Shown here in pieces: positions 9,401-62,166 of a stretch of 64,000 nucleotides of DNA; positions within the stretch are counted from its first letter, which is position 1; each line of letters starts with the position of its first letter. Made by a program: the position numbers and the translations under genes. The notes beneath the pieces are model-generated. The model had not been told where the DNA came from and did no database searches. It saw nothing but the letters and a program-made list of their open reading frames with translations. Location of the stretch: NCBI GenBank assembly GCA_963698075.1, contig OY969116.1, forward strand, positions 798,131 to 862,130. The letters run 5' to 3'. Source of the DNA: an uncultured Candidatus Berkelbacteria bacterium. GTDB taxonomy: Bacteria; Patescibacteriota; UBA1384; UBA12157; JAENIV01.

Positions 9401-9646
9401 TTAGAGTACTTTTTCGATCTCTTTCTCGTCGAAACCAATAATCACCTGCCTGCCGGCAGGCAGGCCTTGACGCTCGATCACAATTACTGGCACACCCATT
9501 TGACCGGAAAGCTTGACCATTTCCTCGGCTTTCTTTTGGTCACGAGAAACATTAATATCCTCAAATGGTAGTTTTTTGGAGCTGAAATATTCTTTGGCCA
9601 TCTGGCAATTGGGGCAAGTCGGGGTAGTATAAATAGTGATTTTCAT
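9401..9646 (-). CDS. glutaredoxin-like (NrdH/thioredoxin-fold) protein
   Basis: CPNC active-site motif; 81 aa. Carries an in-frame GC palindrome encoding LPAGRQ. Confidence 0.7.
   Translation of the reverse strand: MKITIYTTPTCPNCQMAKEYFSSKKLPFEDINVSRDQKKAEEMVKLSGQMGVPVIVIERQGLPAGRQVIIGFDEKEIEKVL
9445..9464. repeat. perfect 20-bp GC-rich palindrome CCTGCCTGCCGGCAGGCAGG inside the glutaredoxin CDS
   Basis: In-frame; encodes LPAGRQ. Confidence 0.7.
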
Positions 9647-9725
9647 AATATTTTCAATTTCTAATTTTCAAAATTGAATCATTGAAAATTCAATGAAAAT
9701 TGAGAATTGATAATTGAAAATTAAA

Positions 9726-10065
9726 TTATTGGCTATTTTTATCGGCAAAGTCACCAATCAACGGCAGTTTATATCTTTCGCCATTGTAGGCTTTAACCAT
9801 CATCACCACAATCAAGACCACGTACAGCGGCCAGAGTAACCAACTAAAGAAGTTAATGACGGGGATAAAGCCCAAAACCAAGGTGATGATAAACCAGGCA
9901 ATCCCCAAAAATATCGATTGCAGCGCATGAAACTTAACGAACTTGTCTTTAGAAATCAAAAGAAAGACAAGCCCGACAATCCAAATGTAACAGAGCAACG
10001 CTGCTAATTTGGGGTCAATGCCCTCGGTGCCCCCATCGCCACCCCCTTGTTGTACTTCGGCCATA
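9726..10065 (-). CDS. small multi-TM membrane protein (DUF4870-like)
   Basis: Start placed at MAEVQQ because it has a perfect AAGGAGG RBS; hydrophobic core with a KFHALQSI motif. Confidence 0.45.
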
Positions 10066-10133
10066 AAAACCTCCTTTTTATACATTTTACCTATCCCCAT
10101 CATAACGAGGAAAGATTTATTTGTCAAACCCTT

Positions 10134-13100
10134 CTACTTTTCACAGGCGATATTGCGTTTGCCGACAATATTCGCCAATTTTTGAAGCATTAATTTATCG
10201 GCGGACACTTTAGTCTTGGTTTTAACTTCGCGAAAATTATCCACCGCATGCTTATGGGGGATTTTCAGCCACACCGGTAGTTCGCCAGGAAAACCCACGA
10301 GGACCTTTTTGATCTCCAGCAGCTTTTCTTTACCTACTCCATTGTTTAATGTGATCGTTAATTTTGGTTCCCCGCCTGCCGGCGAGGCAGGCCTTTTTTC
10401 GATTGTTTGTTGGACGGCCAATTCTTTAGCTTCCTCGGCAATAATTTTTAAGGCACCATCTTTGGTATTGGTTCTCCCTTCGACTAAAATAATGTTATCG
10501 ACTTGCCAAACAAAAGTGTCTTTTTTCAAGACTTTTGGAAAAACTAAGATCTCTGTTCGCGCCGAAGTATCTTCAACGGTGGCAAAAAGCATCGGTTCAT
10601 TAGAGCGAGTAATAATTTTGGAAATGGAGGTAATAATGCCGGCGACTTTGACTTTGGCGCCCGGCAAATTGCCGCTAATCTCTCCGATGGGGTTGGCAAA
10701 AGAAAGCAAGGTTTCCTCCATGCCTTTGAGGGGATGCTCGCTCACATACATGCCCAAGAGCTCTTTTTCCCAAGATAGTTTTTGTTTTTTCGTGGCGGGT
10801 TCAATCTTGATGAGTTCTAAACTCATAACTTGAATATCCGCTGTCCCAAAAAGTCCCATTTGGGCCGACGAGGTTTCTTTGCCTGACGAGCTCAAAAATT
10901 TCAAAATATTTTCCATACTGGCCAGAATTTCATTTCTTTCGCCAAACTTATCTAAAGCCCCAGCTTTAGTTAAAGCTTCAATGACTTTTTTGTTTAAATT
11001 TTTAGAGCCCAAACGTAAGAGAAAATCATCCAAATTTTTAAATAAGCCATTTTTTCTTTCTTCAACAATTGATTCTGCCACTCCCACCCCCACATTTTTA
11101 ATCGCCGCCAGGCCAAAGCGAATGTTTTGAGTGTCCCGGACAACCCCAAAATCAACAAAAGATTCATTAATATCTGGTGGCAAAACGGCGATTCCGAGGC
11201 GTTCGCATTCAGCAATCGCCACCGCGAGTTTTTCCAAATTGCTTTGCTCAGAGGTCATTAACGCTGCCATGTATTCGTAAGGATAATGAGTTTTCAAATA
11301 AGCGGTTTGGTAGGCAATTTTGGCGTAACAAGTAGCATGAGCGCGATTGAAACCGTATTCGGCGAAAGGCTCAATAAAGCGGAAAATTTTGGTGGCAATA
11401 GAGCGCGTCACCCCTTTTTTGACCGCCCCGGCAATGAATTTCATTTCCTGCTCCATTAAGAGTTTTTTGATTTTTTTGCCGACCGCCTTGCGTAAAATAT
11501 CGGCTTCACCTAAAGAAAAACCAGCAATCTCGCGGGCGATTTGGAGGACTTGTTCTTGATAAACAGCAATACCATAAGTTTCGGAGAGAATCGGCTCTAA
11601 TTTTGGATGTAGGTAGGTGACTTTTTTACGGCCGTGTTTGCCAGCAATATAGTCAGGGATAAGTTCCATTGGCCCGGGTCGGTAAAGCGATACCATGGCA
11701 ATAATATCTTCGAATTCAGAGGGCTTAAGTTCTTTGAGATACCTTTTCATGCCGTCAGATTCCAGCTGGAAAACACCGGTGGTCGCTGCCCGCGAAAGGA
11801 GGGCATAAGTTGGTTTGTCGTCTAATGGAAGGGTATCGATATCGACGTCGTGCGCGCGGGTTTTTCTCACGATCCGGATACAATTACCCATGATGGAAAG
11901 ATTCGCCAAACCCAGAATATCCATTTTAATTAGACCAATATCCTCGAGTTCGTTCATGGCATATTGGGTGATGATTTCATTGTTACCTCGAGGTGCAAAT
12001 TGCAAAGGCACATGGAGGACGAGCGGATCTCGGGAGATAACAATGCCGGCAGCGTGAGTTGAAGCGTGCCGCGCGACGCCTTCAAGACGCTGAGCCATAT
12101 CCAAGAGTCTTTTCACTTGTGTGTCTTTTTGGTAGAGATCTTTTAATTCATCAACCGCCTCAAGTGATTGGGCCAAGGTCAGGCCAAAAGGGATCAGTTT
12201 GGCAATTTTATCAACATCGGAATAACTCATTCCTAAGGCTCGGCCGGTATCGCGCACCGACCCGCGGGAAGCCATGGTGCCAAAAGTAATAATTTGGGCC
12301 ACATTTTCCGAACCGTATTTAGAAGAAATGTAGCGAAGGACTTCATCGCGCCGGTTATCGGCGAAATCGAGATCAATGTCCGGCGGGGCGATTCTTTCGG
12401 GATTTAAAAATCTTTCAAAGAGAAGGTTGTATTTGATCGGGTCAACATCGGTAATATTAAGGGCGTAGCTTACCAGAGACCCGGCGGCCGAACCTCGTCC
12501 CGGGCCAACCAAAATTCCATTGGTTTTGGCAAAGTTAACGTAATCGGCGACGATTAAAAGATAATCTTCAAAATGAGTTTTTTCGATTATCCCGAGCTCA
12601 AATTTGAGACGTTCTTTAAGCTCCGGGGCAACTTTGGGGTAGCGTTTTTTTAAACCCTCCCAAGCCAATCTTTCCAAAAAGGTTTTGGAGGTCTCGCCTG
12701 GGGGGAGGGAAAATTTAGGTAAAATCGGTTTGCCAAACTCAAGTTCTAAATTACACATTTTGGCAATCTTGGCGGTGTTGGCGACAATATCTTTGCCAAA
12801 TATTTTCGTCATTTCCTCCGGGGACCGCATTGATAGATTAGTCTCTTTTAAAGACATCCGTGTTTCATCATCAAAGTTTTTTCCTGTCTGAACGGCCAAT
12901 AAAACTTCATGTGGCTCGCGATCTTCGAGCTGAATATAATGTATGTCTGCCGTGCAAATAAGCGGAATTTTTAATTCTTCGCTTATCCTCCGAAGCCCTT
13001 TATTAACCTTGCTTTGTTCAGGCACTTCCGGATGGTCCTGGAGCTCTAAATAGAAATTGTCTTGGCCAAAAATTTCTTGATATTCTTTGGTGATCTTCAG

Positions 13101-13565
13101 AACTTTTTCCCAAGAAGAATTAATGATGGCTTGAGGAATCTCGCCAAAAAGACAAGCCGTCGAGGCAATTAAACCTTCAGAATGATTTCGTAATATTTCC
13201 TTATCAATTCTTGGTCGATAATAGTGACCGAGAAGATGGGCTTGGGTGATTAAATAAAGAAGATTTTGATAGCCGGTTTTGTTTTTGACTAATAAAATTA
13301 AATGGTAGGGATTAGCATCAATTTTCGGCTGTTTATCAGTCATTTGGCGCCGAGCGACATATGTTTCGACGCCAATAATGGGCTTGATGCCTTGGTTTTG
13401 ACATTCTTGATAAAAATCAATTACGCCATACATGGCGCCATGGTCAGTTAAAGCCAAAGCGTCCATGCCCAATTCCTTGGCGCGCGAAACCAGCTCGGGA
13501 ATTTTCCCGAGGCCGTCAAGAAGGGAATAATGAGAGTGGGTGTGTAAGTGGACAAAATTAGTCAT
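10134..13565 (-). CDS. dnaE: DNA polymerase III alpha subunit
   Basis: PHP N-terminus (HLHTHSHYSLLDG); 1143 aa with DnaE architecture. Confidence 0.95.
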   Translation of the reverse strand: MTNFVHLHTHSHYSLLDGLGKIPELVSRAKELGMDALALTDHGAMYGVIDFYQECQNQGIKPIIGVETYVARRQMTDKQPKIDANPYHLILLVKNKTGYQNLLYLITQAHLLGHYYRPRIDKEILRNHSEGLIASTACLFGEIPQAIINSSWEKVLKITKEYQEIFGQDNFYLELQDHPEVPEQSKVNKGLRRISEELKIPLICTADIHYIQLEDREPHEVLLAVQTGKNFDDETRMSLKETNLSMRSPEEMTKIFGKDIVANTAKIAKMCNLELEFGKPILPKFSLPPGETSKTFLERLAWEGLKKRYPKVAPELKERLKFELGIIEKTHFEDYLLIVADYVNFAKTNGILVGPGRGSAAGSLVSYALNITDVDPIKYNLLFERFLNPERIAPPDIDLDFADNRRDEVLRYISSKYGSENVAQIITFGTMASRGSVRDTGRALGMSYSDVDKIAKLIPFGLTLAQSLEAVDELKDLYQKDTQVKRLLDMAQRLEGVARHASTHAAGIVISRDPLVLHVPLQFAPRGNNEIITQYAMNELEDIGLIKMDILGLANLSIMGNCIRIVRKTRAHDVDIDTLPLDDKPTYALLSRAATTGVFQLESDGMKRYLKELKPSEFEDIIAMVSLYRPGPMELIPDYIAGKHGRKKVTYLHPKLEPILSETYGIAVYQEQVLQIAREIAGFSLGEADILRKAVGKKIKKLLMEQEMKFIAGAVKKGVTRSIATKIFRFIEPFAEYGFNRAHATCYAKIAYQTAYLKTHYPYEYMAALMTSEQSNLEKLAVAIAECERLGIAVLPPDINESFVDFGVVRDTQNIRFGLAAIKNVGVGVAESIVEERKNGLFKNLDDFLLRLGSKNLNKKVIEALTKAGALDKFGERNEILASMENILKFLSSSGKETSSAQMGLFGTADIQVMSLELIKIEPATKKQKLSWEKELLGMYVSEHPLKGMEETLLSFANPIGEISGNLPGAKVKVAGIITSISKIITRSNEPMLFATVEDTSARTEILVFPKVLKKDTFVWQVDNIILVEGRTNTKDGALKIIAEEAKELAVQQTIEKRPASPAGGEPKLTITLNNGVGKEKLLEIKKVLVGFPGELPVWLKIPHKHAVDNFREVKTKTKVSADKLMLQKLANIVGKRNIACEK
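10372..10392. repeat. palindromic element CCGCCTGCCGGCGAGGCAGGC inside dnaE
   Basis: Identical 21-mer at 61801-61821 in pcrA; in-frame, encodes PASPAGG. Confidence 0.7.
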
Positions 13566-13737: not shown

Positions 13738-14010
13738 ATGGCTCACACAAAAGCTAAGGGAACCAGTAAATTAGGTAGAGATAGTCGTTCAAAACGCTTA
13801 GGCGTTAAAGTTTTCGGTGGTCAAAAAATCAATGCCGGTCAAATAATTATCCGCCAGCGCGGTTCTAAATATTATGCGGGGGCGGGAGTCGCTCGAGCGA
13901 ATGACGATACTTTATATGCCAAAAAAACAGGGGTGATACGCTTTGACAATCGTCTAAGCCGTCGTTTCAGCGGCCGACTGTCGGATAAAACCGTCGTTTC
14001 CGTGGCTTGA
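13738..14010 (+). CDS. rpmA: 50S ribosomal protein L27
   Basis: MAHTKAKGTSKLGRDSRSKRLGVK... L27 signature. Confidence 0.9.
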   Translation: MAHTKAKGTSKLGRDSRSKRLGVKVFGGQKINAGQIIIRQRGSKYYAGAGVARANDDTLYAKKTGVIRFDNRLSRRFSGRLSDKTVVSVA

Positions 14011-14035
14011 GATTTCAAGAAAGTCTGGTGATCTG

Positions 14036-14058
14036 CCTGTCGGCAGACAGGTTTTCTT
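14036..14058 (+). terminator. terminator hairpin after rpmA
   Basis: CCTGTC-ggca-GACAGG followed by TTTTCTT. Confidence 0.5.
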
Positions 14059-21246: not shown

Positions 21247-21614
21247 AAGTCCTAATCGTTGATGATGAAAAGGGAATTTTAAAGATGTATAGTGAGTTTT
21301 TAACTGGCACTGGCATCGAAGTTTTACAGGCGACCGATGGTCAAACAGGGATTAGATTGGCCAAAGAGCAAAAGCCAGATGTCATTTTGCTCGATATCAT
21401 CATGCCGCGATATAATGGCCTTGATGTCTTAAAAGATCTTAAAGCCGATCAAGAAGTTAAAAATATACCGGTTTTCTTACTAACTAACCTTCCGGCCGAA
21501 AGTTCCGAGGGCAAGGCCAAAGAATTAGGCGCCGCTGGTTATTTAGTCAAAGCGGAATACGAGCCCAAGATGATTTTGGATGTTATTCAAGGCGCCGTCA
21601 AAAGTCCTCGTTAA
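21243..21614 (+). CDS. response-regulator receiver domain protein (CheY-like)
   Basis: VLIVDDE...LLDIIMP...K motifs. Start at MKVLIV; the earlier in-frame ATG overlaps trxB. Confidence 0.8.
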   Translation: MKVLIVDDEKGILKMYSEFLTGTGIEVLQATDGQTGIRLAKEQKPDVILLDIIMPRYNGLDVLKDLKADQEVKNIPVFLLTNLPAESSEGKAKELGAAGYLVKAEYEPKMILDVIQGAVKSPR

Positions 21615-22873
21615 TTAGGAATTTCAAAGGTGAAAGTTGCCCCTCTTCTTCCGCCGGCTGGCGGATTTTTCTCGGCCCAGATTTTACCACCATGCTTTTC
21701 AATAATTAAGCGTGTGATATAGAGACCCAAGCCAGTGCCTTGGTTATCGAGCTCTAAAATATCTTTACCTCTAAAAAATGGCTGAAAAAGCTTTTCCCGG
21801 CCTTCTTCTTTAATTCCGACGCCTTCATCAATAATTTTGACGGTGGTAACTTTTTCATTTTGTTCTGATTCGATACGAATTTTACCCTGCGGAGTGTATT
21901 TAATCGCATTATCTACGAGATTATAGATACAATTGCGAATTTTATCAGCGTCGACATTAATTGGCTTGGTATCATGAGTTTGACAAATAAGGAGAACGTT
22001 ATTTTTCGGTCGAGTTTTTTGAAATTGATCGACGACATTTTTTAAAATATCACCGATCTTTGTTGAAGTTTTTTTAAGCTCGAAAGTGCCACTCTGAATT
22101 CGTGAAATCGAGAGTAATTCCGAAACTAAATTTATCATCCTTTTTGTGTTGGCATAAACTTCCCCGACTGCCGCCTTCTGCTTCGGCTCAAGCTTACCGT
22201 AGTTTTCATCATTAAGCATCGAAACAAATCCTCGAATAATTGAAAGTGGGGTAAAAAGCTGATGGGAAGTCAACGATAAAAATTCTTTTTGACGCCCCGC
22301 CTCCTCCTCCAACACTTTTTGACGAGCCAAAGATTCCTCTTTGGCCATTCTTTCTTGGCGGATTTGGAGGGCCAAGGCTCGACAGAAAATTGTCATCAAA
22401 AGGATCAAACCAATCTGCCAGGCGCCTTGATAAAGAGCTTGAGTTTGCGGCAAAAGCTCTTGAGAGCCCAAAAATACTTCGAAAGCGACAAAAACAGAGG
22501 CGATGGTGGCAATGAGTAAAGCATTGATAAATTCTAGTTCCAAAGCAGCAGCGGCAATCGGCAAGAAATAAAGAGCGAAAAAATATTGACCATAATCTTT
22601 AAGCACATGGATTAAAACACCAATTAGAACAATGTCGGCAATGGTCTTGAGATAAAAACGATTTGAGCGCGAGAAATATTTATAAATGACTAAATAATAG
22701 ACGAGAACAAAAGAAATCAATCCCCCGATTAAATAATAAACTTGATCGTTTTCAATCAGTTTTAATGGTAAAAACCGGACGCCGAAAATGATGAGAACCA
22801 TCACAATCCAAGTTGAGACCTCAATTATTTTCTCATAGCGACCAAAACGGCGACGATTATTTTGTTCAGGCAA
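21611..22873 (-). CDS. membrane sensor histidine kinase
   Basis: N-terminal TM helices, H-box LSLTSHQLFTPL and a C-terminal HATPase_c domain. Confidence 0.85.
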   Translation of the reverse strand: MPEQNNRRRFGRYEKIIEVSTWIVMVLIIFGVRFLPLKLIENDQVYYLIGGLISFVLVYYLVIYKYFSRSNRFYLKTIADIVLIGVLIHVLKDYGQYFFALYFLPIAAAALELEFINALLIATIASVFVAFEVFLGSQELLPQTQALYQGAWQIGLILLMTIFCRALALQIRQERMAKEESLARQKVLEEEAGRQKEFLSLTSHQLFTPLSIIRGFVSMLNDENYGKLEPKQKAAVGEVYANTKRMINLVSELLSISRIQSGTFELKKTSTKIGDILKNVVDQFQKTRPKNNVLLICQTHDTKPINVDADKIRNCIYNLVDNAIKYTPQGKIRIESEQNEKVTTVKIIDEGVGIKEEGREKLFQPFFRGKDILELDNQGTGLGLYITRLIIEKHGGKIWAEKNPPAGGRRGATFTFEIPN

Positions 22874-32899: not shown

Positions 32900-32900
32900 G

Positions 32901-43292: not shown

Positions 43293-43374
43293 CGAATCCG
43301 ATCCAGTAGAGGGAGTTCATACTCCCTTTTCGTTTATATAAAGAAGAATCCGTCCCGGAAGGGGACGGATGATG

Positions 43375-43716: not shown

Positions 43717-43817
43717 GCGATTCCTCCGCGCGGCGTTGTTAGAACTATTATGACACCTTTTAAATAAATGTCAACTGTTGACAAAATTTCTAGTTATTAT
43801 ACAATTAAAATACCAAA

Positions 43818-44040
43818 TTCAAAACCAATGACCAGGAGAATGGGCCTGCGAGGTGCAAGGTGAAAGCTTTAGCCAGTAGCCAATGCCGGGCGTTCCCGTG
43901 AAAGAACAAAGGTATGTCGGTTGAAAATACCGGAGTGCCTAAAAGAGGTCTCGCCTCGGCGGGGCAATGAAGGTGGTACCGCGGAAGAGAGGTCTTTCGT
44001 CCTTCTAAACTCATTTTAGAAAAACGAGAGACCTTTTTTC
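43818..44040 (+). promoter_or_regulatory. T-box riboswitch leader with intrinsic terminator
   Basis: Canonical T-box sequence AATGAAGGTGGTACCGCGG at 43966-43984, overlapping the 5' arm of the terminator GGTCTTTCG...CGAGAGACC-TTTTTT (43988-44040). GGTGAAAG distal-loop-like motif upstream. Confidence 0.65.
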
Positions 44041-48292: not shown

Positions 48293-48855
48293 TGCGACAA
48301 ATTTACTTTTTCTAAATCAAACTCCAAAGTAAATCTCAATTTTTGGGCCTGGGCCGTTTGATCGGTTTGAAGACTAGAGCTTTTAAAATTAACATTCTTA
48401 AAGACAGGTGAATTTTCGAGCTTTTCCTTGAATTTAATAATTTCTCTTTCTGTCGTGGTATTACCCTGCAGAATAAAATTAGGAGACTTGCTCGTGTTGG
48501 CAGTTAAATTATCAAATTGAACATCAGAAGGGGCGCTGTTGGCCAATTCTTGCATCACTTGAGACCAAATAACACGAGTTTTATTAATAGTGTCTGTTGT
48601 ATTGGCGCGATCGTTGATGAGCAGTGCCAGATCTTCAAGATCCTTTGACTCTTCTAACTGACCAGTATTTTTTTCAACATTGCTTTTGGCGGCTGAAAGC
48701 CTATCTTTAATCGTGGCTTCAAGCGACCGGCCGATAATGGCGATGACAACAATCACAAGGGTAATCACAATACAAATCCCAATCAAGGAAGCATTGCGTT
48801 TGGCTTCAATTCGTCGAAGCTTAAGCTCGGGAGACAAAAGATTAATGTTAATCAT
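48289..48855 (-). CDS. pilN: type IV pilus assembly protein PilN-like
   Basis: MININLLSPE... with TM helix, typical PilN N-terminus; overlaps pilM and pilO. Confidence 0.6.
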   Translation of the reverse strand: MININLLSPELKLRRIEAKRNASLIGICIVITLVIVVIAIIGRSLEATIKDRLSAAKSNVEKNTGQLEESKDLEDLALLINDRANTTDTINKTRVIWSQVMQELANSAPSDVQFDNLTANTSKSPNFILQGNTTTEREIIKFKEKLENSPVFKNVNFKSSSLQTDQTAQAQKLRFTLEFDLEKVNLSQ

Positions 48856-48861
48856 GATTTC

Positions 48862-49788
48862 TCATATTTTCTTCATCGCCAATCCAATGACACTTGCGAA
48901 TTTTGGATTGTAAGTTTTTGTCTTAATTAATGGCCAACCAATTTCTGTCTTAATTTTTGTTGATTGTTCTATTGCCGAAGTAATGTTGGGAGTATTGGCA
49001 CCGCCTCCCGCTAAAATAATTTTTCTAAAGATTGTCGCTTGCCCTATACGATTTTGATAATATTTAATCAAATGAATAATTTCCGAGACTAAATTATTAA
49101 TGATGGGTTGAAAATCTTTGGCCAAATCATCGCCGCCACTCGATATCGTTGAAGTCAATTTAATGGTTGCTTGGTCAAAGCAGATGATGCTCGAGGTTTT
49201 GGCGCCAATATCTAAAATTAAATAGGGTCCAGCATCATTTTTACCAATCAAAGCCCTGACCACCGAAACCGGTTTGGTCTCCAGGCTCGAAAGTTCCAAT
49301 CCCGCCTGCTTCATCACCTCCGCAAATGAGTCGACAATTTTTTTGGGGGCGGCGACGACCAAGACATCAATGAGATTTTTACCTGGTAATTGACCGACAA
49401 TTTGCCAATCCATATACATTTCATTAGCGGGAATAGGGAAGAATTCGCCAGCCTGATAGGGAATATTTTTGTTGATTTCTTCAATTTTCATTGCCGGTAA
49501 ATCGATTGATTTAGTAAAAACCAATGATTCGGGTAGGGCCGCTGAGACTACTTTCGAAGAAATTGGGTGAGGCTTGGCTGATTTCATTGCCTGCCAAATT
49601 GCCTCGGTTGCTTTCTTTTGATCTTTGATGCCATCCTTACCTAAAGTTTTAGACTCAATTTTAACCTCTGCCACGCCCAAAAGTTTAGCGCCGGCACCCT
49701 CGCCTTTAAGCTGCATTACTTTTAAGCTTGAATAACCAATATCTAGACCGAAAATGGGCTTTTTTAATCCTAGAATTCCCTCGTACAA
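48862..49788 (-). CDS. pilM: type IV pilus assembly protein PilM (actin-like ATPase)
   Basis: GLDIGYSSLKV... actin/FtsA-like fold; 308 aa. Confidence 0.85.
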   Translation of the reverse strand: MYEGILGLKKPIFGLDIGYSSLKVMQLKGEGAGAKLLGVAEVKIESKTLGKDGIKDQKKATEAIWQAMKSAKPHPISSKVVSAALPESLVFTKSIDLPAMKIEEINKNIPYQAGEFFPIPANEMYMDWQIVGQLPGKNLIDVLVVAAPKKIVDSFAEVMKQAGLELSSLETKPVSVVRALIGKNDAGPYLILDIGAKTSSIICFDQATIKLTSTISSGGDDLAKDFQPIINNLVSEIIHLIKYYQNRIGQATIFRKIILAGGGANTPNITSAIEQSTKIKTEIGWPLIKTKTYNPKFASVIGLAMKKI

Positions 49789-49794
49789 AAATCC

Positions 49795-49960
49795 CTCCTC
49801 AACTTCGATTATATCATAATCGAAGAAATCCTAAATTCTAAGCACTAAATTCGAAACAATATCTAAATTCCTAAATCAGAATTTTAAAAAACATTTTGAT
49901 TTTTGGATTTGTTATTTGGAATTTGTTTGGGATTTCGGATTTAGGATTTCGGATTTCCCG
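49795..49960. repeat. AT-rich intergenic repeat region related to the 740/20235 family (reverse orientation)
   Basis: aatcctaaattctaa / ggatttcggatttaggatttcggattt motifs. Confidence 0.4.
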
Positions 49961-49969
49961 CGAGGCGGG

Positions 49970-51241
49970 CTAGTATTCTTCTTCCCAATGATTAATTTCG
50001 ATTACTGGCGTTTCCGTAGGATTATCTAAAGCCGTATTAACAATGTCACTGTCGAAATGGATATTGACCGTACGAAAGCCAGAGATCCAGACCCTTCTGG
50101 CGATAATGCCACCGGTCAAATTGAGGATGTAGGGAATGGAAGAATCAATCTCGACTCGATCACCGGCATAAACCAAGCCAGTACCTTGAAAATTACCGGC
50201 AGTGCCAATGACAATATCGCGGCTACTCAAGACTCCTGCCGGACCTCCAGCAGGTACATTAACAAAAAGTTGTCCCAGGGTAATAGTAATGCTACCCGAA
50301 GCAGCAATTATCCCATTCATGGTGATGGTTCTTGCCCAATCAATATCCAAGGGTCCATCAATGAAGACCACTCCAGAAAAAGTATGGCTACCCAATTTGG
50401 GAATTAAATCTTTAAAATCTTTTTGCTTGGCAAAGTATTGATTGCCTTCAGGACTTTCGCCGGGAATATTTTTGGCTATATTTTTATAATATTCGAAATC
50501 AATTTCCGGAATTTTCTTGGTTTCCGCCCCTTCAAGAGGAGCACAACCCGGATTATCACCACATTGAGGCGTTTCCGGATCGCTATCGTCTTCAAACAAA
50601 CAATTACAATTGACAGTTGAATTTTTATTAACTACTTGATCACCGGCTTCAACCGTTTTTTCAACGTTAATAATTGATCCAAATTTAAAATTAATATCGC
50701 GATTGCTCAAGACACCGCCATTATAGATATTAACTGGGGCATACCAAAAATCACTATCAGCGATGGAAGAACCAGCGCCTGAACCAGTGGCATAAATCCC
50801 GCCATCATAGGGATAAGTTCGGTCATTCGCCTGGGCAATACCGACCTTAATTTCTCGCCTGGCGGTCCGTAAAGTTCCGATATGATAAGTCCCAATAGCA
50901 GTGACAATGGCCGAACCCCAAGCATTATTTTGAATCCTGACCTCATAACCACCTTGGGGAATCAGGGCTGTCTCGTGAGAAAAAATGGTCAAACCATCAG
51001 TGGTGGTCATAAATCGCTCTCGAATGTCGGGATCATATTGAACAAGATAAATTGCTTCTTGGACACCAGCTTCGGCCAAAGAAAAAGCCACTGCTGCCCC
51101 TTTATTGTTACGGGCAATGGTTAACTCACTAAATAAAGAACTAGCATAAAAATAAGTGGCAGTCACTAAGACCATCATCAAAATTAAGACCACAATACTG
51201 ACATAACCCTGTTGCCAATTTTGAATTTTTTTACTGTACAT
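49970..51241 (-). CDS. PilX-like pilus assembly/minor pilin protein
   Basis: PilX_N-like hydrophobic N-terminus (QQGYVSIVVLILMMVLV); large secreted domain. Confidence 0.4.
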   Translation of the reverse strand: MYSKKIQNWQQGYVSIVVLILMMVLVTATYFYASSLFSELTIARNNKGAAVAFSLAEAGVQEAIYLVQYDPDIRERFMTTTDGLTIFSHETALIPQGGYEVRIQNNAWGSAIVTAIGTYHIGTLRTARREIKVGIAQANDRTYPYDGGIYATGSGAGSSIADSDFWYAPVNIYNGGVLSNRDINFKFGSIINVEKTVEAGDQVVNKNSTVNCNCLFEDDSDPETPQCGDNPGCAPLEGAETKKIPEIDFEYYKNIAKNIPGESPEGNQYFAKQKDFKDLIPKLGSHTFSGVVFIDGPLDIDWARTITMNGIIAASGSITITLGQLFVNVPAGGPAGVLSSRDIVIGTAGNFQGTGLVYAGDRVEIDSSIPYILNLTGGIIARRVWISGFRTVNIHFDSDIVNTALDNPTETPVIEINHWEEEY

Positions 51242-51902
51242 TTCTTCCTAAAACTTTGGTTTGAAAAGGATAGGTGGTGGTACCATCAGAAATTTCTAAA
51301 TTGATTGTAATTACTTCTTCTCCCCAAAATTGTAAAGTGGTCATCTGTTGGGCTTTAATTTGATCCCTATCAATATATTCAGTTGGTTGCCCCCCGCCGG
51401 GAGCGAGCGTTGACCACAAAACCCAATTGGTGTCGGAAGCGCCACCGAAGGCATAATGGCTTAATATTCGATGAAGATCGGTCCCAACTAGTTTATAAGT
51501 GACATATTGAATTTTCCCCACCGCCTCACCCGAGGGTGAAGGCGAAGGGACCGGCGATGCGACGCCCACCGGCCAAAAATTATGGCCATCTTGAAATTTC
51601 AACTCCGAAGATGGTGTTCCCGAATCTGGATCAGCCGGCAGCACGGTCCAAATCTCGACGGCTTGGCGGATATCTCGCGTCATTCTTTCTAAGGCAATGC
51701 GGCCATTTTGGGTCAATTCCGCACTGACTAAATTTTTCTTGAAAGATTGGTAAGACATTGAATAAATAGCATAACCGGCCATCACAATTATTACCGACAA
51801 AAAAACGACCGCTAAAATTTCAACTAACGTAAATCCTTTTCTTTTTTTCATTTTAATGTTTTGCTTTGATTGAGGCTGTCTTAAAACTTTTATCTTGACC
51901 AT
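51231..51902 (-). CDS. prepilin-type minor pilin (PilW-like)
   Basis: Class III signal GFTLVEILAVVFL. Confidence 0.7.
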   Translation of the reverse strand: MVKIKVLRQPQSKQNIKMKKRKGFTLVEILAVVFLSVIIVMAGYAIYSMSYQSFKKNLVSAELTQNGRIALERMTRDIRQAVEIWTVLPADPDSGTPSSELKFQDGHNFWPVGVASPVPSPSPSGEAVGKIQYVTYKLVGTDLHRILSHYAFGGASDTNWVLWSTLAPGGGQPTEYIDRDQIKAQQMTTLQFWGEEVITINLEISDGTTTYPFQTKVLGRNVQ

Positions 51903-52290
51903 TTTCTTTCCAGGAAATGGTCACCGTGATTTGTTTCATATTACAAGGCAGTTCTTCAGTACAGATTCCTCCCTGATTGACATCGAGCAGATTAGCGTCA
52001 ATTAGCGAGATAACGATTTGTTTATTCCAATTGTGGAAAGGATTATCAAGGTCATCAGAATAGGGTGCGGGCGCGGGAGCGGGCGAACTAACTACCAAAT
52101 TATCATAGGAGATTGCCGATTCTTCATCCAAAAGTCCACTGGCAAGATTAGAGGCAATGGTCTCGTTGCGCGCTGTTTTGATAATCTTGATACTCGAGGC
52201 ATAAAAGCCGGCGATACCCAAAAGCCCAACTTCTAAAATAAAAACGGCCAATAAAACTTCAATTAGGGTGAAAGATGAACGCTTTTTCAT
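51853..52290 (-). CDS. prepilin-type minor pilin (PilV-like)
   Basis: SFTLIEVLLAVFIL prepilin cleavage/methylation motif. Confidence 0.7.
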   Translation of the reverse strand: MKKRSSFTLIEVLLAVFILEVGLLGIAGFYASSIKIIKTARNETIASNLASGLLDEESAISYDNLVVSSPAPAPAPYSDDLDNPFHNWNKQIVISLIDANLLDVNQGGICTEELPCNMKQITVTISWKENGQDKSFKTASIKAKH

Positions 52291-52715
52291 TGCAAATTAA
52301 TCACTCCTGCCGGTAAGATATTAATAGTTTTTGTGGCTCCTCCTAAATCAAGAATAATTGAACCATTATAATCAGGGGCGCCATCAATTCTAAAAGTAAT
52401 CGGATTAGAAATATTTAATTGCAAGGTGATATTCTCCGGCAGGATGATGGTTTCTAATTCATGATCGCCACCATCGACTTTAACTAATTGATAACTCACG
52501 GGTGGTGCGGTTGACTTGAAATAAATCCGATGTGGTTTTTGGGTGGTCACTGCTTCTTCTTGAGCTTGGCGAAGTTTGCTGGTTAATAACCTGGCTGCCC
52601 CCGAAAGTTGCCAACTGGGTAGAAAACTGTTTATTCCCATCACGGTTACTGCCGCCAAAATTCCGATTATCGCCATGACGATTAACATTTCCATTAAAGA
52701 AAAAGCCTTTTTCAT
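52287..52715 (-). CDS. prepilin-type pilin (FimT/GspH-like)
   Basis: AFSLMEMLIVMAIIGILAA prepilin motif. Confidence 0.7.
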   Translation of the reverse strand: MKKAFSLMEMLIVMAIIGILAAVTVMGINSFLPSWQLSGAARLLTSKLRQAQEEAVTTQKPHRIYFKSTAPPVSYQLVKVDGGDHELETIILPENITLQLNISNPITFRIDGAPDYNGSIILDLGGATKTINILPAGVINLQ

Positions 52716-52719
52716 ATCT

Positions 52720-53949
52720 CTAAATAACGTTTACTAAGGAATATATCGGCATAATTACCGAGGCCACCACAAAACCAACACCGGTTCCGATAAGGATTAT
52801 TAAGATAGGCTCAACCAGAGTCGCTAGATTGGAGGTGATGTTTTCCACTTCTTTATCAAAAAAATTGGCCATGGAAAGAAGAACATAATCCAATTTGCCG
52901 CTTTTTTCACCGACGGCAATCAAGTGATAAATCATTGGCGGAAAGATTTTTTGTTTATCGAGCGTTGTGGAAAGTTGGACGCCGTTTTCAATATCTTTGG
53001 AAATTCTTTTGAAGGCATCTTTATAAAGGCGATTATTAATCACGCCTGAAACTGTTTCCACAATTTCCAACATCGGCAGTCCTGAAGCCACTAAAGTTCC
53101 CATCGTTCGAGTGAATCTGGCCATATAAATTTTGCGTGTCAGCGGTCCAATGAGAGGAATTTTAAGTTTAAAATTATCCCAGATCAGGCCGCCCGCAGCT
53201 GTTCTGGCCCAAAAACGAATGCCGAAAATTAAACCTAAAATCACCACCAGGAAAATGTACCAATAATTTATAATGGCATCGCTCGTCCCTAAAACTATTC
53301 GAGTGGTTATAGGCAATTCGGCGCCTAAATCCTGGAAAATGTTTTTAAGTTCCGGCACCACAAAAATTAACATTAAAATTACGATTGCCACTAGAGCGGA
53401 AACGACGACAATCGGATAGGTGACTGCCGCTTTAATTTTGGAAATCAAATCATAATCCTTTTGTAATTGTTCAGCCAAGCGCTCCAAAACCTCATCGAGT
53501 TTGCCGCTTTTCTCTCCCGAGCGGACGATGGAGATATAAAGTTTATTAAATATTTTTGGAAATTTCGCTAAGGTCTCTGAAAGGGCCTTACCTCCCTTGA
53601 CCTCACTGGCGATCTCGGCGATAGTTCGAGAAAAATAATCATTTTCGGTTTGTTCCTCTAATGCCGTAAAAGCCTCAACTAAGGGCAGACCGGCTTTAAT
53701 CATCATTGCCAACTGTTGGGTGAAAATGATTTTATCCTTCAAAGGAACGCGGTTGGAAATAAAAGGAATTTCAATCGATTTTTTGCTAATGCCGGGTAAT
53801 CCTGCTTCTTCTTTTTTCACATCCAAAACAAAAAGTTGGTGATTTTTGAGAATTTTTGCCGCCTCAGCTTCTGAACCTGCTTCAATCATACCTGTTTGAA
53901 TTTGGCCTTCCTTAGTTTTGGCACTTTTTGCATGATAAATATATTTCAT
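52720..53949 (-). CDS. pilC: type IV pilus inner-membrane platform protein PilC (GspF family)
   Basis: Two GspF repeats; 409 aa. Confidence 0.9.
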   Translation of the reverse strand: MKYIYHAKSAKTKEGQIQTGMIEAGSEAEAAKILKNHQLFVLDVKKEEAGLPGISKKSIEIPFISNRVPLKDKIIFTQQLAMMIKAGLPLVEAFTALEEQTENDYFSRTIAEIASEVKGGKALSETLAKFPKIFNKLYISIVRSGEKSGKLDEVLERLAEQLQKDYDLISKIKAAVTYPIVVVSALVAIVILMLIFVVPELKNIFQDLGAELPITTRIVLGTSDAIINYWYIFLVVILGLIFGIRFWARTAAGGLIWDNFKLKIPLIGPLTRKIYMARFTRTMGTLVASGLPMLEIVETVSGVINNRLYKDAFKRISKDIENGVQLSTTLDKQKIFPPMIYHLIAVGEKSGKLDYVLLSMANFFDKEVENITSNLATLVEPILIILIGTGVGFVVASVIMPIYSLVNVI

Positions 53950-53955
53950 AAAATC

Positions 53956-55812
53956 CTAATCTTTGGTGACTCGCCAGATTTCTTCAAGGGTGGTTAAACC
54001 ATCAATCGCTTTGAGAATTCCATCTTGTTTCATTGTCACCATCCCATTTTTAACTGCTTGGGCTCCCAAATTTGTTCCGGAAGCTCTTTTGGCGACCATT
54101 TCCTTTAAATCGTCAGTTAATTGGAAAATCTCAAAAATCCCGATCCTTCCTTTGTAGCCCGATCCGCTACAATTATCGCAGCCTTTGCCGTGGAAAAATT
54201 CGACTTTGGTAGGCTGCTGGGCACCAGGTGGTAGGTTTTTGAGTTCTTTTTCGGCGACGTCTTTTTCCCCGGTCTCAATTTGGAGGGCTTCTTTGCAGTT
54301 TTCGCAGATTCTCCGACAAAGTCTTTGAGCAACCACACAGTTTACGGATGAATTGACGAGGAAGGGTTCGATCTTCATATCGATAAGCCGGGGAATGGCT
54401 CCCGCCGCATCATTGGTGTGTAAAGTTGACAAAACAATATGACCAGTTAAGGCGGCGTGGACCGCCATGTCAGCCGTTTCATAATCACGAATTTCGCCAA
54501 TCATAATGACATTGGGATCCTGACGGACAATCGATCTTAGACCATTGGCAAAAGTAAAACCAATTTGGGGATGAACCTGAGCCTGGTTGATGGTTTGCAT
54601 GCGATATTCCACCGGATCTTCTAAAGTAACAATATTGATACCGACATTTTTAATTTTATCGATGACGGCATATAAAGTGGTAGTTTTGCCTGAGCCGGTC
54701 GGGCCAGTAACCAAAATCATTCCATGAGCCTTGTGAATGTTTTCGTCCAAAACCTTAAAAGCTGTTCCTCTTAAACCAAGTTGTTCCAAAGTTAAAATGC
54801 CAGATGATTTATCTAAAATTCTGGCCACCACCTTTTCGCCATTAACCGTCGGTAAAGTTGAGACTCGAAAATCAACCTCGGCACCATCAACCACAGTTTG
54901 AAAACGACCGTCTTGGGGAAGACGAGTTTCATCAATTTTAAGGTCCGACAAAATTTTTATTCTCGAGACAATCGCCGGTTGTATTTCCTTGGGCAAAGAG
55001 ATTATTTTTCTCAAGATGCCGTCAATCCGGAAGCGAACAGTGACTTGATCTTCCTCGGGTTCAATGTGAATATCAGAAGCTTTTTCGCGAACCGCTCGTT
55101 TATAAAGAGATTGGACGATTTTAGCTGCCGGCGCCGTTTCCTCAATTTCTTCTTTTTTAATTACCGGCCCCTCTTTTTTTGTCGGTTTTAACTCTTCTTC
55201 CTCTTCTTCGGCTGACTCAACAATTTTTTTGAGCTCTCCGGAAAGCGCCGAGTATTGATCCAAGACATGATTGAGATCGGCCTGGGTGCAGATTCGAATA
55301 TCTAATTCTTTGCCTGTTTTCTTTTTGACGAATTCAATCGCCTCACGATCCTCAGGATCAATCATTGCCACCACCAGCCGTCCTTCTTTTTCTTCAATGG
55401 GTACAATTTGATAATGACGAGCAATGTGTTCGGGAAGAAGACTTAAGACTCTTTTGGGAACAGTCGTTTTTGAGAGGTCAATATAGGAGATATTTATCGC
55501 CGGGGTAAAGACGGCTTCGCCGGTCACTTTTTTACCGCCAGCAATTTCCTCTTTAAATTCTGGGCTGGGCCGGAAGCGGGGAATGGTCTTTTCCAAAGAT
55601 AAATAGGTCTTGGAAGGGTTACGGACATCCTTGACGGTTCTTGAAGGATATTTAATCATTACAAAATTACCAAAACCAGGGATATTGACGCTCCGACCGG
55701 CTAAAAGCTCTTTAGAAATAGTATTTTGGATTGAATCTAGGGTTTTTGAAACACTTTCTAAATCAATATTGGAGTTTTTTGCCACCAATTTTTTGAGTTC
55801 TTTCGATGTCAA
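53956..55812 (-). CDS. pilB: type IV pilus assembly ATPase PilB/GspE with N-terminal HU-like domain
   Basis: Walker A GPTGSGKTTT plus Asp/His boxes; GspII N-domain. The first ~90 aa resemble HU/IHF (GFGNFVM...RNPSKT...IPRFRPS). Confidence 0.9.
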   Translation of the reverse strand: MTSKELKKLVAKNSNIDLESVSKTLDSIQNTISKELLAGRSVNIPGFGNFVMIKYPSRTVKDVRNPSKTYLSLEKTIPRFRPSPEFKEEIAGGKKVTGEAVFTPAINISYIDLSKTTVPKRVLSLLPEHIARHYQIVPIEEKEGRLVVAMIDPEDREAIEFVKKKTGKELDIRICTQADLNHVLDQYSALSGELKKIVESAEEEEEELKPTKKEGPVIKKEEIEETAPAAKIVQSLYKRAVREKASDIHIEPEEDQVTVRFRIDGILRKIISLPKEIQPAIVSRIKILSDLKIDETRLPQDGRFQTVVDGAEVDFRVSTLPTVNGEKVVARILDKSSGILTLEQLGLRGTAFKVLDENIHKAHGMILVTGPTGSGKTTTLYAVIDKIKNVGINIVTLEDPVEYRMQTINQAQVHPQIGFTFANGLRSIVRQDPNVIMIGEIRDYETADMAVHAALTGHIVLSTLHTNDAAGAIPRLIDMKIEPFLVNSSVNCVVAQRLCRRICENCKEALQIETGEKDVAEKELKNLPPGAQQPTKVEFFHGKGCDNCSGSGYKGRIGIFEIFQLTDDLKEMVAKRASGTNLGAQAVKNGMVTMKQDGILKAIDGLTTLEEIWRVTKD

Positions 55813-59917: not shown

Positions 59918-59935
59918 GTGGCCTTGACTTTTGTT

Positions 59936-59965: not shown

Positions 59966-59974
59966 GAATTTAGA

Positions 59975-60255
59975 CGTTAGGGAAAAGGTTAAGAGGAGGG
60001 GATGTTCTCCTAGCCTTATCCCTGCCGTTACCGAAAACCCCGCAAAACTCGCTTCGCTCGTCGCGGGGCAAGCAAAAACAAAAATAAAATGTACTTTACC
60101 AATTACGGCAGGAACGACAGGGTGAAGTTATGCTTTCCTTACTGCAACGCTTAGCGTTGTGGTAGGGACAAAGCCAATTACTTTGCCCTTACCACAAAGG
60201 CGCGACGCGCGGTCAATAATTAAAGTTTATTTGGGCCGATAGCGATCGCGCCTTT
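59975..60255 (+). ncRNA. candidate structured ncRNA of unknown class (~280 nt)
   Basis: Own promoter and terminal hairpin/T-run (GGCGCGA...TCGCGCC-TTTTTTT). Several long hairpins (CCCCGC..GCGGGG; GTGGTAGGG..CCCTTACCAC; CAACGC-tta-GCGTTG). No convincing ORF. Confidence 0.35.
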
Positions 60256-60288
60256 TTTTATCCAAAAATTTTGTTACAATATGTCTAC

Positions 60289-62166
60289 ATGAACTCCAAA
60301 ATTTTTGAAGGACTAAATGAACGTCAGATCGAAGCAGTCAAAACTACTGAAGGGCCTGTTCTAATATTGGCTGGGGCTGGCTCTGGTAAAACTAAAGCCT
60401 TGACACATCGCGTCGCCTATTTAATCCGACATAAAAAAGTTTCGCCCTACAATATTTTAGTCGTTACTTTTACTAACAAGGCGGCCGAAGAAATGATCGG
60501 TCGTATTAATAAACTCCTTGGCCAACAAAAACAAATTCTTCATCAAAAGATTCCCAAATTATTGCCTTGGGCGGGCACTTTCCATTCAATCTCAGCCAAA
60601 ATCCTTAGAAAAGAAATTGAACCATTAGGTTTCCGACGCTCCTTTTTAATTTATGATGAAGACGATTCTTTAAATGCGATCAAACACGCCATGGATACTC
60701 TCGAGATTGATAAAAAACAATACAATCCGACGGCCATAAAAAACTTCATTTCCGGCGCCAAAAACGAACTCATCACATCGACTCAATATCAAAAATATGC
60801 CCAGGGCTACTTTGGCGAGATTGTCCAAAAAGTTTATGCCGAATATCAGAAAGATCTTAAAGCGGCCAATGCTTTAGACTTTGACGATTTGATTATGAAA
60901 ACCGTCCAACTTTTCCAAGAATTTCCCGAAGTGCTCCAGCGCTGGCAAGTATTATTCAAATATATTTTGGTTGATGAATATCAAGACACCAATCACGCCC
61001 AATATATTTTGATTAATCTTTTAGTAAAAAAACATCCCCAGCATGCGAATCTTTTTGTCATTGGCGATGATTATCAAGCCATTTACGGTTTTCGCGGCGC
61101 CAATTTCCGCAACATTTTAGACTTTGAAAAAGACTACCCAAAAGCCAAAGTAATCAAAATGGAGCAAAATTATCGTTCGACCAAAAATATCATCACTGCC
61201 GCCCAAAACGTGATTGAAAAAAATATCTTGCGTTCTGAAAAAGGTCTTTGGACTGAAAATGAAGAAGGGCTACCGGCCACCATTTTTGAAGCCCAAAATG
61301 AAATTGAAGAGGCGGAGTTTATCATTGACGAAATTAATGCTCTCCGGCACATTGGTCGCTACAACGACTTTGTAATTTTATATCGCACCAATGCCCAATC
61401 GCGCATTTTTGAGGAAGTTTTAATGCAGAATAATTTGCCGTATCGGTTAGTCGGAGCCTTGCGGTTTTATGAACGCAAAGAAATCAAAGATATTTTGGCT
61501 TATTTAAAATTAATCGCCAATCCGGCCGACAAAGTATCTTTGCGAAGAATTATCAATGTCCCCCCGCGAGGCATCGGCAAGATGACGAATTATGAATTAC
61601 GAAGCCCGAAAACAGAAAAATTTTATCAAATGTTAGAGGATTTAAGAATATCCGCCAGGCGATTAAAACTGCCCGAACTCATTGATCTGGTGGCAGAAAA
61701 ATCCAGTTATCGCGATTGGGTTTTAGACGGCACCGAAGAAGGAGAGATGAGGTATGAAAATATTTCAGAGCTGAAGTCCGTGGCATCTCGGGCGGATAAC
61801 CCGCCTGCCGGCGAGGCAGGCTTAGAAACGTTTTTAGAAAATGTCACTTTGGTTTCTGATATTGATAATTATGACCGGGCAGCTGATGCGGTCACACTCA
61901 TGACTTTACATAACGCTAAGGGTTTAGAATTTCCAATTGTCTTTATGGTGGGGATGGAAGAAGGTTTGTTTCCTCACGCCCGCTCAATGTTTGAACCTTC
62001 TGAACTTGAAGAAGAACGACGACTCTGCTACGTCGGCATGACCCGAGCCCAGAAACGACTTTATCTAACCTATGCGGCGGCGCGGATGATCTACGGCACC
62101 ACCTCGGCCAATCAACCTTCAAGATTCATCTCAGATATCCCGAATGAATTGACGGAAAGGATCTGA
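60289..62166 (+). CDS. pcrA: ATP-dependent DNA helicase PcrA/UvrD
   Basis: UvrD motifs (AGAGSGKT, DEYQDTN, QNYRST, ...). Contains the in-frame palindrome encoding PPAGEAGL. Confidence 0.95.
   Translation: MNSKIFEGLNERQIEAVKTTEGPVLILAGAGSGKTKALTHRVAYLIRHKKVSPYNILVVTFTNKAAEEMIGRINKLLGQQKQILHQKIPKLLPWAGTFHSISAKILRKEIEPLGFRRSFLIYDEDDSLNAIKHAMDTLEIDKKQYNPTAIKNFISGAKNELITSTQYQKYAQGYFGEIVQKVYAEYQKDLKAANALDFDDLIMKTVQLFQEFPEVLQRWQVLFKYILVDEYQDTNHAQYILINLLVKKHPQHANLFVIGDDYQAIYGFRGANFRNILDFEKDYPKAKVIKMEQNYRSTKNIITAAQNVIEKNILRSEKGLWTENEEGLPATIFEAQNEIEEAEFIIDEINALRHIGRYNDFVILYRTNAQSRIFEEVLMQNNLPYRLVGALRFYERKEIKDILAYLKLIANPADKVSLRRIINVPPRGIGKMTNYELRSPKTEKFYQMLEDLRISARRLKLPELIDLVAEKSSYRDWVLDGTEEGEMRYENISELKSVASRADNPPAGEAGLETFLENVTLVSDIDNYDRAADAVTLMTLHNAKGLEFPIVFMVGMEEGLFPHARSMFEPSELEEERRLCYVGMTRAQKRLYLTYAAARMIYGTTSANQPSRFISDIPNELTERI
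61801..61821. repeat. palindromic element CCGCCTGCCGGCGAGGCAGGC inside pcrA
   Basis: Identical to the dnaE copy; encodes PPAGEAG. Confidence 0.7.

Follow-up and report, generated by a model that had tools for sequence, protein, structure and literature searches.

Short palindromic repeats that settle inside bacterial genes have been described before. Rickettsia palindromic elements (RPEs) lie in frame within conserved open reading frames (ORFs; Ogata et al. 2000 and 2002, as cited in PMC3733652), and both RPEs and repetitive extragenic palindromes (REPs) are known inside genes, many of which serve replication or repair (PMC3733652). GC clusters and palindromic elements also occur in the mitochondria of yeasts and other fungi (reviewed in PMC8811140). 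A precedent of another kind is SegB, a free-standing GIY-YIG homing endonuclease tied to tRNA genes, which drives tandem amplification of tRNA-segB units and acts at distant loci in trans (PMC13096335, citing Brok-Volchanskaya 2008 on SegB). Here we describe palindromic sites in a 64,000-nucleotide stretch of a Candidatus Berkelbacteria genome (contig OY969116.1; hereafter the window, to which coordinates refer unless another locus is named). The window probably contains five palindromic insertion elements as solo copies, ultra-short and non-autonomous, from two families; four are intact and one is decayed. Taken as a whole, the data are best explained, and we think rather likely explained, by a selfish micro-palindrome of the REP and RPE kind that is plausibly driven by a GIY-YIG nuclease. 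L-numbers below denote loci or contigs, and P-numbers proteins, that were compared in the analysis.

The likeness to RPEs is one of behavior. Both are palindromic and non-autonomous, both sit in frame in functional conserved genes where they encode loop peptides, and no transposase is known for either. The first-pass annotation had read the window palindromes as selfish hairpins that, in the manner of RPEs, propagate into ORFs without shifting the frame. As an analogy this reading stands, for the copies are lineage-specific, in frame and dispersed, with decayed copies in relatives; as a statement of membership it does not. The in-frame insertions are absent from orthologues, as those of RPEs would be, but RPEs measure about 100-150 bp, have family consensus sequences and are restricted to Rickettsia, whereas the present elements measure 16-21 nt, share no sequence similarity with RPEs, occur in many phyla and in viruses but not in Rickettsia (the host here being Candidatus Berkelbacteria), and have a candidate nuclease partner. 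Mitochondrial GC clusters are likewise short GC-rich palindromes that spread in an AT-rich genome, sometimes into coding sequence and near tRNA genes, but they are organellar and lineage-specific, typically 30-60 nt long, and have characteristic target motifs. Other short motifs occupy genes in permissive frames, among them HIP1 of cyanobacteria, the DNA uptake sequence (DUS) of Neisseria, the uptake signal sequence (USS) of Haemophilus and MJRE of Methanocaldococcus. These are lineage-specific and arise mostly from substitution and recombination drive, unlike the present elements, which are clean insertions with empty sites in relatives.

Palindromic insertions in conserved genes of the window

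Family B is a perfect 20-nt palindrome, CCTGCCTGCCGGCAGGCAGG, together with 21-nt variants that carry one additional central base. Variant A (CCCGCCTGCCGGCGAGGCAGG) is such a 21-nt, odd-centered form, in which B has gained a G at its center and position 3 is C instead of T. Family C comprises the 16-nt palindrome TCCGCCAGCTGGCGGA and its one-base variants. The palindromes are free of stop codons in all six frames, and as single-stranded DNA the elements form stable hairpins of -6 to -9 kcal/mol. The GC content of the window is about 42%.

A B copy (CCTGCCTGCCGGCAGGCAGG, 9445-9464, no strand assigned) lies in a glutaredoxin-like gene, grx (9401-9646, minus strand), where a perfect palindrome had been noticed; its length is indeed 20 nt. 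The net insert is 21 nt (9445-9465), that is, B plus one flanking base, and is read as ..E[RQGLPAG]RQ... Variant A occurs twice in identical form and plus orientation. The copy at 10371-10391 is inside dnaE (10134-13565, minus strand) and is read on the opposite strand as R-PASPAGG-E in a variable C-terminal linker; the copy at 61800-61820 is inside pcrA (60271-62166, plus strand) and is read as N-PPAGEAG-L in a length-variable loop. The first-pass annotation had found CCGCCTGCCGGCGAGGCAGGC to be identical in these two genes, which is exact at 10372-10392 and 61801-61821, and the true identity is 22 nt (CCCGCCTGCCGGCGAGGCAGGC, 10371-10392 and 61800-61821), for which 100 dinucleotide-preserving shuffles give an expectation of 0.

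A family C copy (TCCGCCGGCTGGCGGA, one base off TCCGCCAGCTGGCGGA; 21650-21665, no strand assigned) lies in a histidine kinase gene (21611-22873, minus strand) and contributes a net four amino acids (PAGG, +12 nt) to a loop near the ATP lid. It had been taken tentatively for a relative of the other insertions. An insertion it is, but one of the separate 16-nt family C, outside the 20/21-nt family. The in-frame P-A-G peptides that drew attention to these genes are borne out by translation: LPAGRQ in the glutaredoxin, PASPAGG in DnaE, PPAGEAG in PcrA and PPAGG in the kinase. The fifth site, ATCTGCCTGTCGGCAGACAGG (14031-14051, plus), lies downstream of rpmA (13738-14010), where it occupies the loop of an AT-rich hairpin, and is a decayed B-like copy. 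It had been described as an rpmA terminator whose stem has the same flavor as the other palindromes; the resemblance to B is real, but the B-like sequence is a decayed copy set into the loop of the AT-rich hairpin. A further GC-rich near-palindrome, TGCCGCCGGCGCCGCCGGCCGAG, is found at 23580-23602, in an ORF (22975-24417) for a 480-aa protein without a Pfam match.

Comparison with orthologues shows that the elements are lineage-specific insertions and not conserved sequence. In an alignment of 120 PcrA sequences, PPAGEAG is absent from 118 of the 119 other homologues, every close relative included, and a relative that is 89% identical (L001) has the empty site GATAAT|CTAGAA where the window has GATAAC[21 nt]TTAGAA, a difference of exactly 21 nt. 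The glutaredoxins of three Berkelbacteria relatives (L126, L127, L128) are shorter by 7 aa (21 nt) and lack the insert. For dnaE, the relative encoding P0188 has QQTLDKKEPKLTITL where the window has QQTIEKRPASPAGGEPKLTITL, which at the protein level is DKK-EPKLTITL against EKR-PASPAGG-EPKLTITL. The kinase has four additional residues relative to HK853 and to 11 of its 11 closest homologues, one of them 61% identical. Thus the orthologues of all four genes are without the insert, a comparison that the first-pass annotation had proposed for dnaE, pcrA and grx, and the motif is also found beyond the three sites first noticed. Measured against homologues, the in-gene copies add 21, 21, 21 and 12 nt, all multiples of three and all in length-variable loops.

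At rpmA, the AT-rich hairpin stands alone in L127 and L128, while in the window and in L126 its loop contains B-like inserts that have diverged, at orthologous positions. As judged from these alignments, the insert is an older, decayed B-like copy. Decay by point mutation after insertion is also seen in the pcrA copy of another Berkelbacteria lineage, L002.

We considered whether the copies might be an artefact of assembly or library preparation, or might reflect selection at the protein level for a P-A-G peptide. Many carriers are metagenome-assembled genomes (MAGs), and the peptides are alike. Nevertheless, the flanking reading frames run exactly through each copy, independent projects (NCBI, JGI, ENA, Logan) yield contigs with the same sites occupied, decayed copies exist, and B is present in isolate genomes. 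Moreover, identical DNA in unrelated proteins is read in differing frames and orientations and yields differing peptides (PPAGEAG and PASPAGG). The chance that either explanation is correct is very slight.

Distribution, target sites and recurrence

The families extend far outside the window. A scan of one genome per species with the pattern GCCTGCCGGC(N)AGGCAGG matched at least 120 stretches with B-type sequences. Among the matches listed, most are the perfect 20-mer and the remainder have one additional central base, and the carriers include Patescibacteria of many classes, Omnitrophota, Bacteroidota (isolates among them), uncultured Gammaproteobacteria, Planctomycetota, Margulisiibacteriota and others. 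The majority of these listed carriers have genomes of 35-47% GC, so the sequences are not chance matches in GC-rich genomes. Exact variant A is also present in L009, L046, L059, L092 and the viral contig L257, and its carriers include a gammaproteobacterial MAG, Marinoscillum and a Moranbacteria MAG. Exact B occurs in 35 stretches of viral contigs; it is absent from GenBank phages, PLSDB plasmids and 5,426 E. coli genomes. Berkelbacteria DNA amounting to 321 kb has 15 copies of families B and C, against 0 in shuffles, and about 1 Mb of non-Berkelbacteria pcrA loci (mostly helicases about 50% identical, from metagenomes), which served as a negative control, contains none. Family C in its exact form (TCCGCCAGCTGGCGGA) was met four times in loci chosen without regard to it, and its one-base variants include the kinase copy, whose 16-mer is identical to one in the pcrA gene of the Berkelbacteria contig L004. 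These comparisons of sequence show that two families have been active over evolutionary time in Berkelbacteria and that they occur verbatim across phyla and viruses.

Copies can also be nested one inside another. In the viral contig L162, a B-like variant, CCATGCCTACCGGCAGGCAGG, forms a tandem array of at least ten 21-nt units (3920-4142) that reaches the contig end, and further B-like copies lie within a 284-aa ORF upstream of the array.

Insertion leaves the ends of the palindrome sharp: across 74 copies no flanking position is conserved, and extension of the palindrome into the flanks does not exceed chance. Neither a regular target-site duplication nor a target consensus was found in the flanks. 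Adjacent repeats are lacking at 71 of 120 copies, and direct repeats of 7, 7, 8 and 14 nt accompany 4 of the 120. Repeat-rich flanks are enriched (24 of 120 copies vs 6.2%). Intergenic copies are three times as likely as control positions to occupy the loop of a hairpin that was already there (7 of 47 vs 5%, P = 0.008). A parent element in which CCTGCCTGCC...GGCAGGCAGG ends would enclose a transposase was sought and not found; the solo half-sites are mere variants.

Most 20-nt copies (47 of 54) are outside long open frames. Those in frame in conserved genes elsewhere are found in genes for a PfkB kinase, LytB, FtsK, an ATP-dependent DNA ligase and RecO (twice), as well as an RfbB-like dehydratase, TrmD, a ComM-like ATPase and ribosomal protein S6. 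Of the eight in-gene B copies, seven use the cysteine-avoiding frame that reads LPAGRQ (P about 0.008). Within genes, the only copies to persist are those that insert whole codons into loops able to tolerate them.

The families differ in what they do to their target. The 16-nt element brings a net gain of only 12 nt in L164, L244, L245, L246, a second L004 site and the window kinase, and the simplest account of these alignments is that it replaces four A/T-only bases on insertion. Such replacement is seen at four independent sites, while the 21-nt form adds cleanly and B adds one base. In one protein the 16-mer overlies a native motif and leaves the length unchanged.

It is possible to see in these elements REPs, or the composite REPIN form, moved by a RAYT-like HUH tyrosine transposase, or else tiny MITEs (miniature transposable elements with inverted repeats) moved by an insertion-sequence transposase, with the enzyme encoded elsewhere. 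REPs are GC-rich hairpins of 20-40 nt, mostly extragenic, and some of them occupy genes, notably for replication and repair (PMC3733652). Our elements are likewise short, GC-rich, present in many copies and mostly extragenic, with dnaE, pcrA, RecO, FtsK and a DNA ligase as their replication and repair hosts, and the logic of a satellite and its enzyme is that of REPs and RAYTs. They differ in being perfect palindromes identical across phyla, where REP families are lineage-specific, and in lacking the GTAG or CGTC tag, or any conserved flank, in all 74 copies compared. The associated enzyme is also of another type, a GIY-YIG nuclease here and an HUH transposase in the REP/RAYT system. No RAYT is encoded in the window, and neither a Y1 nor any other transposase appears in the window or among the proteins near 120 B copies. 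Those neighborhoods share no protein family of at least 100 aa, a threshold that excludes the GIY-YIG ORFs of 80-90 aa described below. As for MITEs, these measure about 50-500 bp and have terminal inverted repeats that enclose an internal region; here the palindrome is the entire element, with no terminal repeats besides it and no target-site duplication of fixed length. We regard movement by a transposase of either kind as highly improbable.

Recurrence at the same sites is seen in pcrA. Among Berkelbacteria PcrA proteins, element-encoded peptides occupy at least six positions. Near residue 211, five lineages have N-PPAGG-P where their closest relatives (85-90% identical) have K-(F/Y/I)-P, and in three of them (L164, L244, L245) the junctions AA|TCCGCCAGCTGGCGGA|CC are identical amid lineage-specific flanks. 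We tested recombination as a cause of this recurrence and reject it, since in each carrier its own flanks reach the insert; because the junctions sit in lineage-specific flanks, a transferred gene segment is ruled out. At site 505, which holds variant A in the window, an A that has decayed occupies the same position, likewise oriented, in a lineage 67% identical (L002), and the sister of L002, 96% identical to it, is empty. In L003 the same site has A in reverse orientation (about 2090-2135 of that locus), split after 9 nt by a nested, GC-rich 21-nt insert, CTCGCCTCGCGTCGAAGCGGG. On this comparison of flanks and empty sites, the same element has entered the same pcrA positions independently in several lineages. 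Repeated, precise hits of this kind argue for a site-selective process and against random integration.

Inteins (PF14890) are found in Berkelbacteria PcrA (P0019, P0039, P0055, P0068, P0083) and DnaE (P0123, P0143, P0168, P0181, P0189), the same two genes that hold variant A in the window. The intein position differs from that of the site-505 loop.

Linkage to tRNA genes and GIY-YIG nucleases

A GIY-YIG domain beside B was first seen in a gene for HsdS, the S subunit of a type I restriction system, in L100. A profile search for GIY-YIG ORFs (matches to PF01541 with E = 1e-14 to 1e-16) then found small ORFs of this kind in 8 of about 155 loci selected for B and in 0 of 98 other loci (P = 0.025). 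In five of these eight the distance to B is no more than 150 nt (P = 9e-5). Where B precedes a GIY-YIG start codon, it lies 18-60 nt upstream. Family B is therefore physically linked to a tRNA-invading GIY-YIG cassette, with an adjacency far above chance.

The layout recurs in detail. A 5' end of a tRNA gene, about 30 nt long, contains B in its D-loop (for example GGACCCGTAGCTCAATTGGATA|B|GAGCGT) and is followed after some 12 bases by an ORF for an 80-90-aa GIY-YIG protein, whose stop codon overlaps the 5' end of the element that follows; the unit closes with the same tRNA gene in intact form. This order of tRNA fragment with B, nuclease and tRNA is common to a WWE3 genome, a viral contig and a Bacteroidota-like contig (L068, L160 and L253-L255 among the examples). 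The number of units varies, with one in L255 and two in tandem in the sister samples L253 and L254. B is also found in the variable-loop region of tRNA genes.

The association is recovered from the nuclease side as well. A profile search returned more than 7,500 relatives of the nuclease, and the sources named among the matches listed (Omnitrophica, WWE3, Dokdonia, Marinoscillum, Cytophagales, Yanofskybacteria, Paceibacterota and others) run parallel to the taxa that have B. Several GIY-YIG homologues chosen without regard to B (P0248/P0253, P0359, P0341) have B-encoded peptides just upstream, and in a few nuclease ORFs that extend upstream the added part encodes a tRNA D-arm with CLPAGR, or PPAGRQAG, directly before the nuclease. 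When a single protein was used as query for GIY-YIG relatives in viral contigs, it found only itself. A search with a tighter alignment, blind to B, gave five viral GIY-YIG loci. In one of these a decayed B lies within the tRNA fragment upstream, and in another the downstream tRNA contains three B-like hairpins (L249, L250).

Two observations at these loci deserve mention in their own right. In L100 (3780-4300) and in P0341, hence in two independent sources, a GIY-YIG domain interrupts HsdS in frame at its middle, where it separates the two repeated halves of that protein, with B at the upstream junction. In the viral contig L248 (about 1735-1830), the tRNA that follows the GIY-YIG gene has the anticodon loop CCTCAGG and so the anticodon TCA, which could make it a UGA-reading tRNA with a suppressor or recoding role; its anticodon arm, TCCGCC...GGCGGA, resembles family C.

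The arrangement has the hallmarks of a SegB-like cassette. In the linked loci, all of which are outside the window, a GIY-YIG protein stands beside the element and beside tRNA genes, the tRNA end is duplicated, and unit copy number is polymorphic (L068, L160, L253-L255), with tandem amplification apparently through the shared tRNA 5' end (L253 compared with L255). The proteins differ from SegB in being bare GIY-YIG domains of about 80-90 aa and in residing in bacterial chromosomes of many phyla. To our knowledge, no palindromic satellite has been described for Seg enzymes.

The position of B 18-60 nt before GIY-YIG start codons could also mean that it acts on expression, and more generally the palindrome might be a functional cis-element under selection, for instance bound by a protein, used as a signal in uptake or segregation, or acting as a terminator or RNA hairpin, with the in-gene copies as tolerated by-products. 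Exact conservation of 20 nt across phyla does recall operator-like palindromes, and one decayed copy sits in the rpmA terminator hairpin. A terminator role was rejected on the frequency of T-runs, which is 10.8% at B copies and 10.8% at random control positions, and a known RNA family was rejected on the lack of any Rfam match at the copies. The positions lack conservation among relatives, copies are gained and lost and decay freely, and they occur in both orientations, in several frames and in unrelated genes. A selected cis-element thus seems to us a poor candidate, with little probability.

Possible mechanism, significance and other features of the window

That the palindromes are micro-palindromic mobile insertions we hold with high confidence. 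A mechanism driven by the nuclease is a more tentative proposal, for which we would claim somewhat less than an even chance. According to it, B would be the cis partner of a SegB-like, free-standing, tRNA-targeting GIY-YIG cassette and would lie at or near the cleavage site of the nuclease. Solo copies would arise when a resident or phage-borne nuclease cuts at another place and repair of the break installs a copy of the hairpin there. Cuts would favor particular sequences and hairpin loops, and repair would bring a small, variable loss or gain of target bases. Selection would then remove copies that shift the frame and hits in structured parts of proteins, so that the survivors would be intergenic copies and P/A/G-rich loop insertions of 4-7 residues. 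B would be a satellite of the cassette as REPs are satellites of RAYTs. We infer that the inserted peptides have no function of their own.

Several observations weigh against a role for the nuclease. The window encodes only housekeeping functions, with no GIY-YIG gene, transposase, recombinase or HUH enzyme over its 64 kb, and a profile search found no GIY-YIG gene in the 321 kb of Berkelbacteria DNA. Some 95% of B copies have no GIY-YIG gene nearby, and at family C loci no nuclease neighbor was found. The taxonomic overlap between carriers of B and GIY-YIG sources is anecdotal, drawn as it is from the matches listed on both sides. No homology links the solo sites to any donor, and the model does not account for the writing of a defined 20-nt palindrome at a break. 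GIY-YIG cuts leave 2-nt 3' overhangs, from which the three target behaviors (replacement of four bases, clean addition, addition with one base) are not simply predicted. Finally, the 21-nt form is in open frames at 5 of 17 copies and the 20-nt form at 7 of 54, which is a trend only (P = 0.14).

Some of these points would sit easily with a hairpin parasite that needs no enzyme of its own. Such an element would be spread by host replication or repair alone, when the template is switched or when synthesis slips on extruded hairpins, as has been proposed for the GC clusters of yeast mitochondria, and its proximity to GIY-YIG genes would reflect a shared liking for tRNA-like or structured DNA. The absence of a mobilizing gene from the window and from 321 kb of related DNA, the distance of the bulk of copies from nuclease genes, the preference for hairpin loops and repeat-rich flanks, the nested copies, the 21-nt tandem array in L162 and the variable loss or gain at the target all agree with this account. 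It leaves unexplained, however, the letter-perfect identity across phyla and the sharp 20-nt ends, the identical junctions at one pcrA site in three lineages, and B's fixed place in the D-loop of the tRNA fragment just upstream of GIY-YIG genes in unrelated organisms. We therefore consider spread without a dedicated enzyme unlikely, and retain the nuclease-driven satellite as the working model.

It is tempting to speculate further. The 20-nt palindrome and its 16- and 21-nt relatives might be the smallest known DNA that spreads horizontally, a "micro-homing" satellite at the cleavage sites of bare-domain, tRNA-targeting GIY-YIG nucleases that crosses phyla, probably by way of phages, and that in streamlined genomes such as those of the candidate phyla radiation (CPR) provides a steady source of 4-7-residue loop insertions in essential proteins, at the same sites repeatedly. 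We put this forward as a possibility, and a minority one. Intragenic REPs and RPEs are already known. The element sequences and their peptides were not found in the searchable literature, where general searches gave only work on REPs, RPEs and mitochondrial GC clusters; as far as that literature shows, what is new is the size, the exact identity across phyla, the repeated use of fixed sites and the association with GIY-YIG genes.

If this proposal is correct, the lower size limit for mobile DNA would move to 16-21 nt, non-coding and without terminal repeats besides the hairpin. One exact sequence in distant phyla and viruses would offer a simple tracer of horizontal exchange in uncultivated lineages. 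The elements would provide a testable source for short lineage-specific indels in conserved proteins of CPR bacteria and other small genomes, and would explain identical indels in unrelated lineages, which are a trap for phylogenetics and for indel-based markers. A tiny GIY-YIG nuclease whose action marks chosen sites with a defined 20-nt tag would hold mechanistic, and perhaps practical, interest. For genome annotation, the elements could account for odd P/A/G-rich peptides, split tRNA fragments and some apparent frameshifts.

Other features of the window stand apart from the palindromes. A low-GC island at 32000-36000 (0.30-0.34 vs about 0.42) encodes a DUF4037 protein, an Asp/Glu racemase-like protein and an ATP-grasp protein associated with sugar transfer, and probably represents acquired cell-envelope genes. 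The high-GC segment at 42000-44000 (0.517) has two radical SAM genes, one with a SPASM domain, which suggests a foreign peptide-maturation cassette. The region at 1893-2570 has open frames in several phases on both strands and strong GC-rich hairpins at 2349-2367 and 2437-2465; it matches nothing in Pfam, nor in Rfam even at a relaxed threshold, and may be a structured RNA or a fast-evolving gene. Within a cluster of pilM/N/O, pilC and pseudopilin genes (47552-55812), the ATPase of the type IV pilus or type II secretion system (T2SSE and MshEN domains; 53956-55812, minus strand) has an N-terminal HU-type DNA-binding domain (PF00216). The same fusion of HU and pilus ATPase is present in L244 (1-1255) and L245 (1989-3848), and is thus conserved in relatives.

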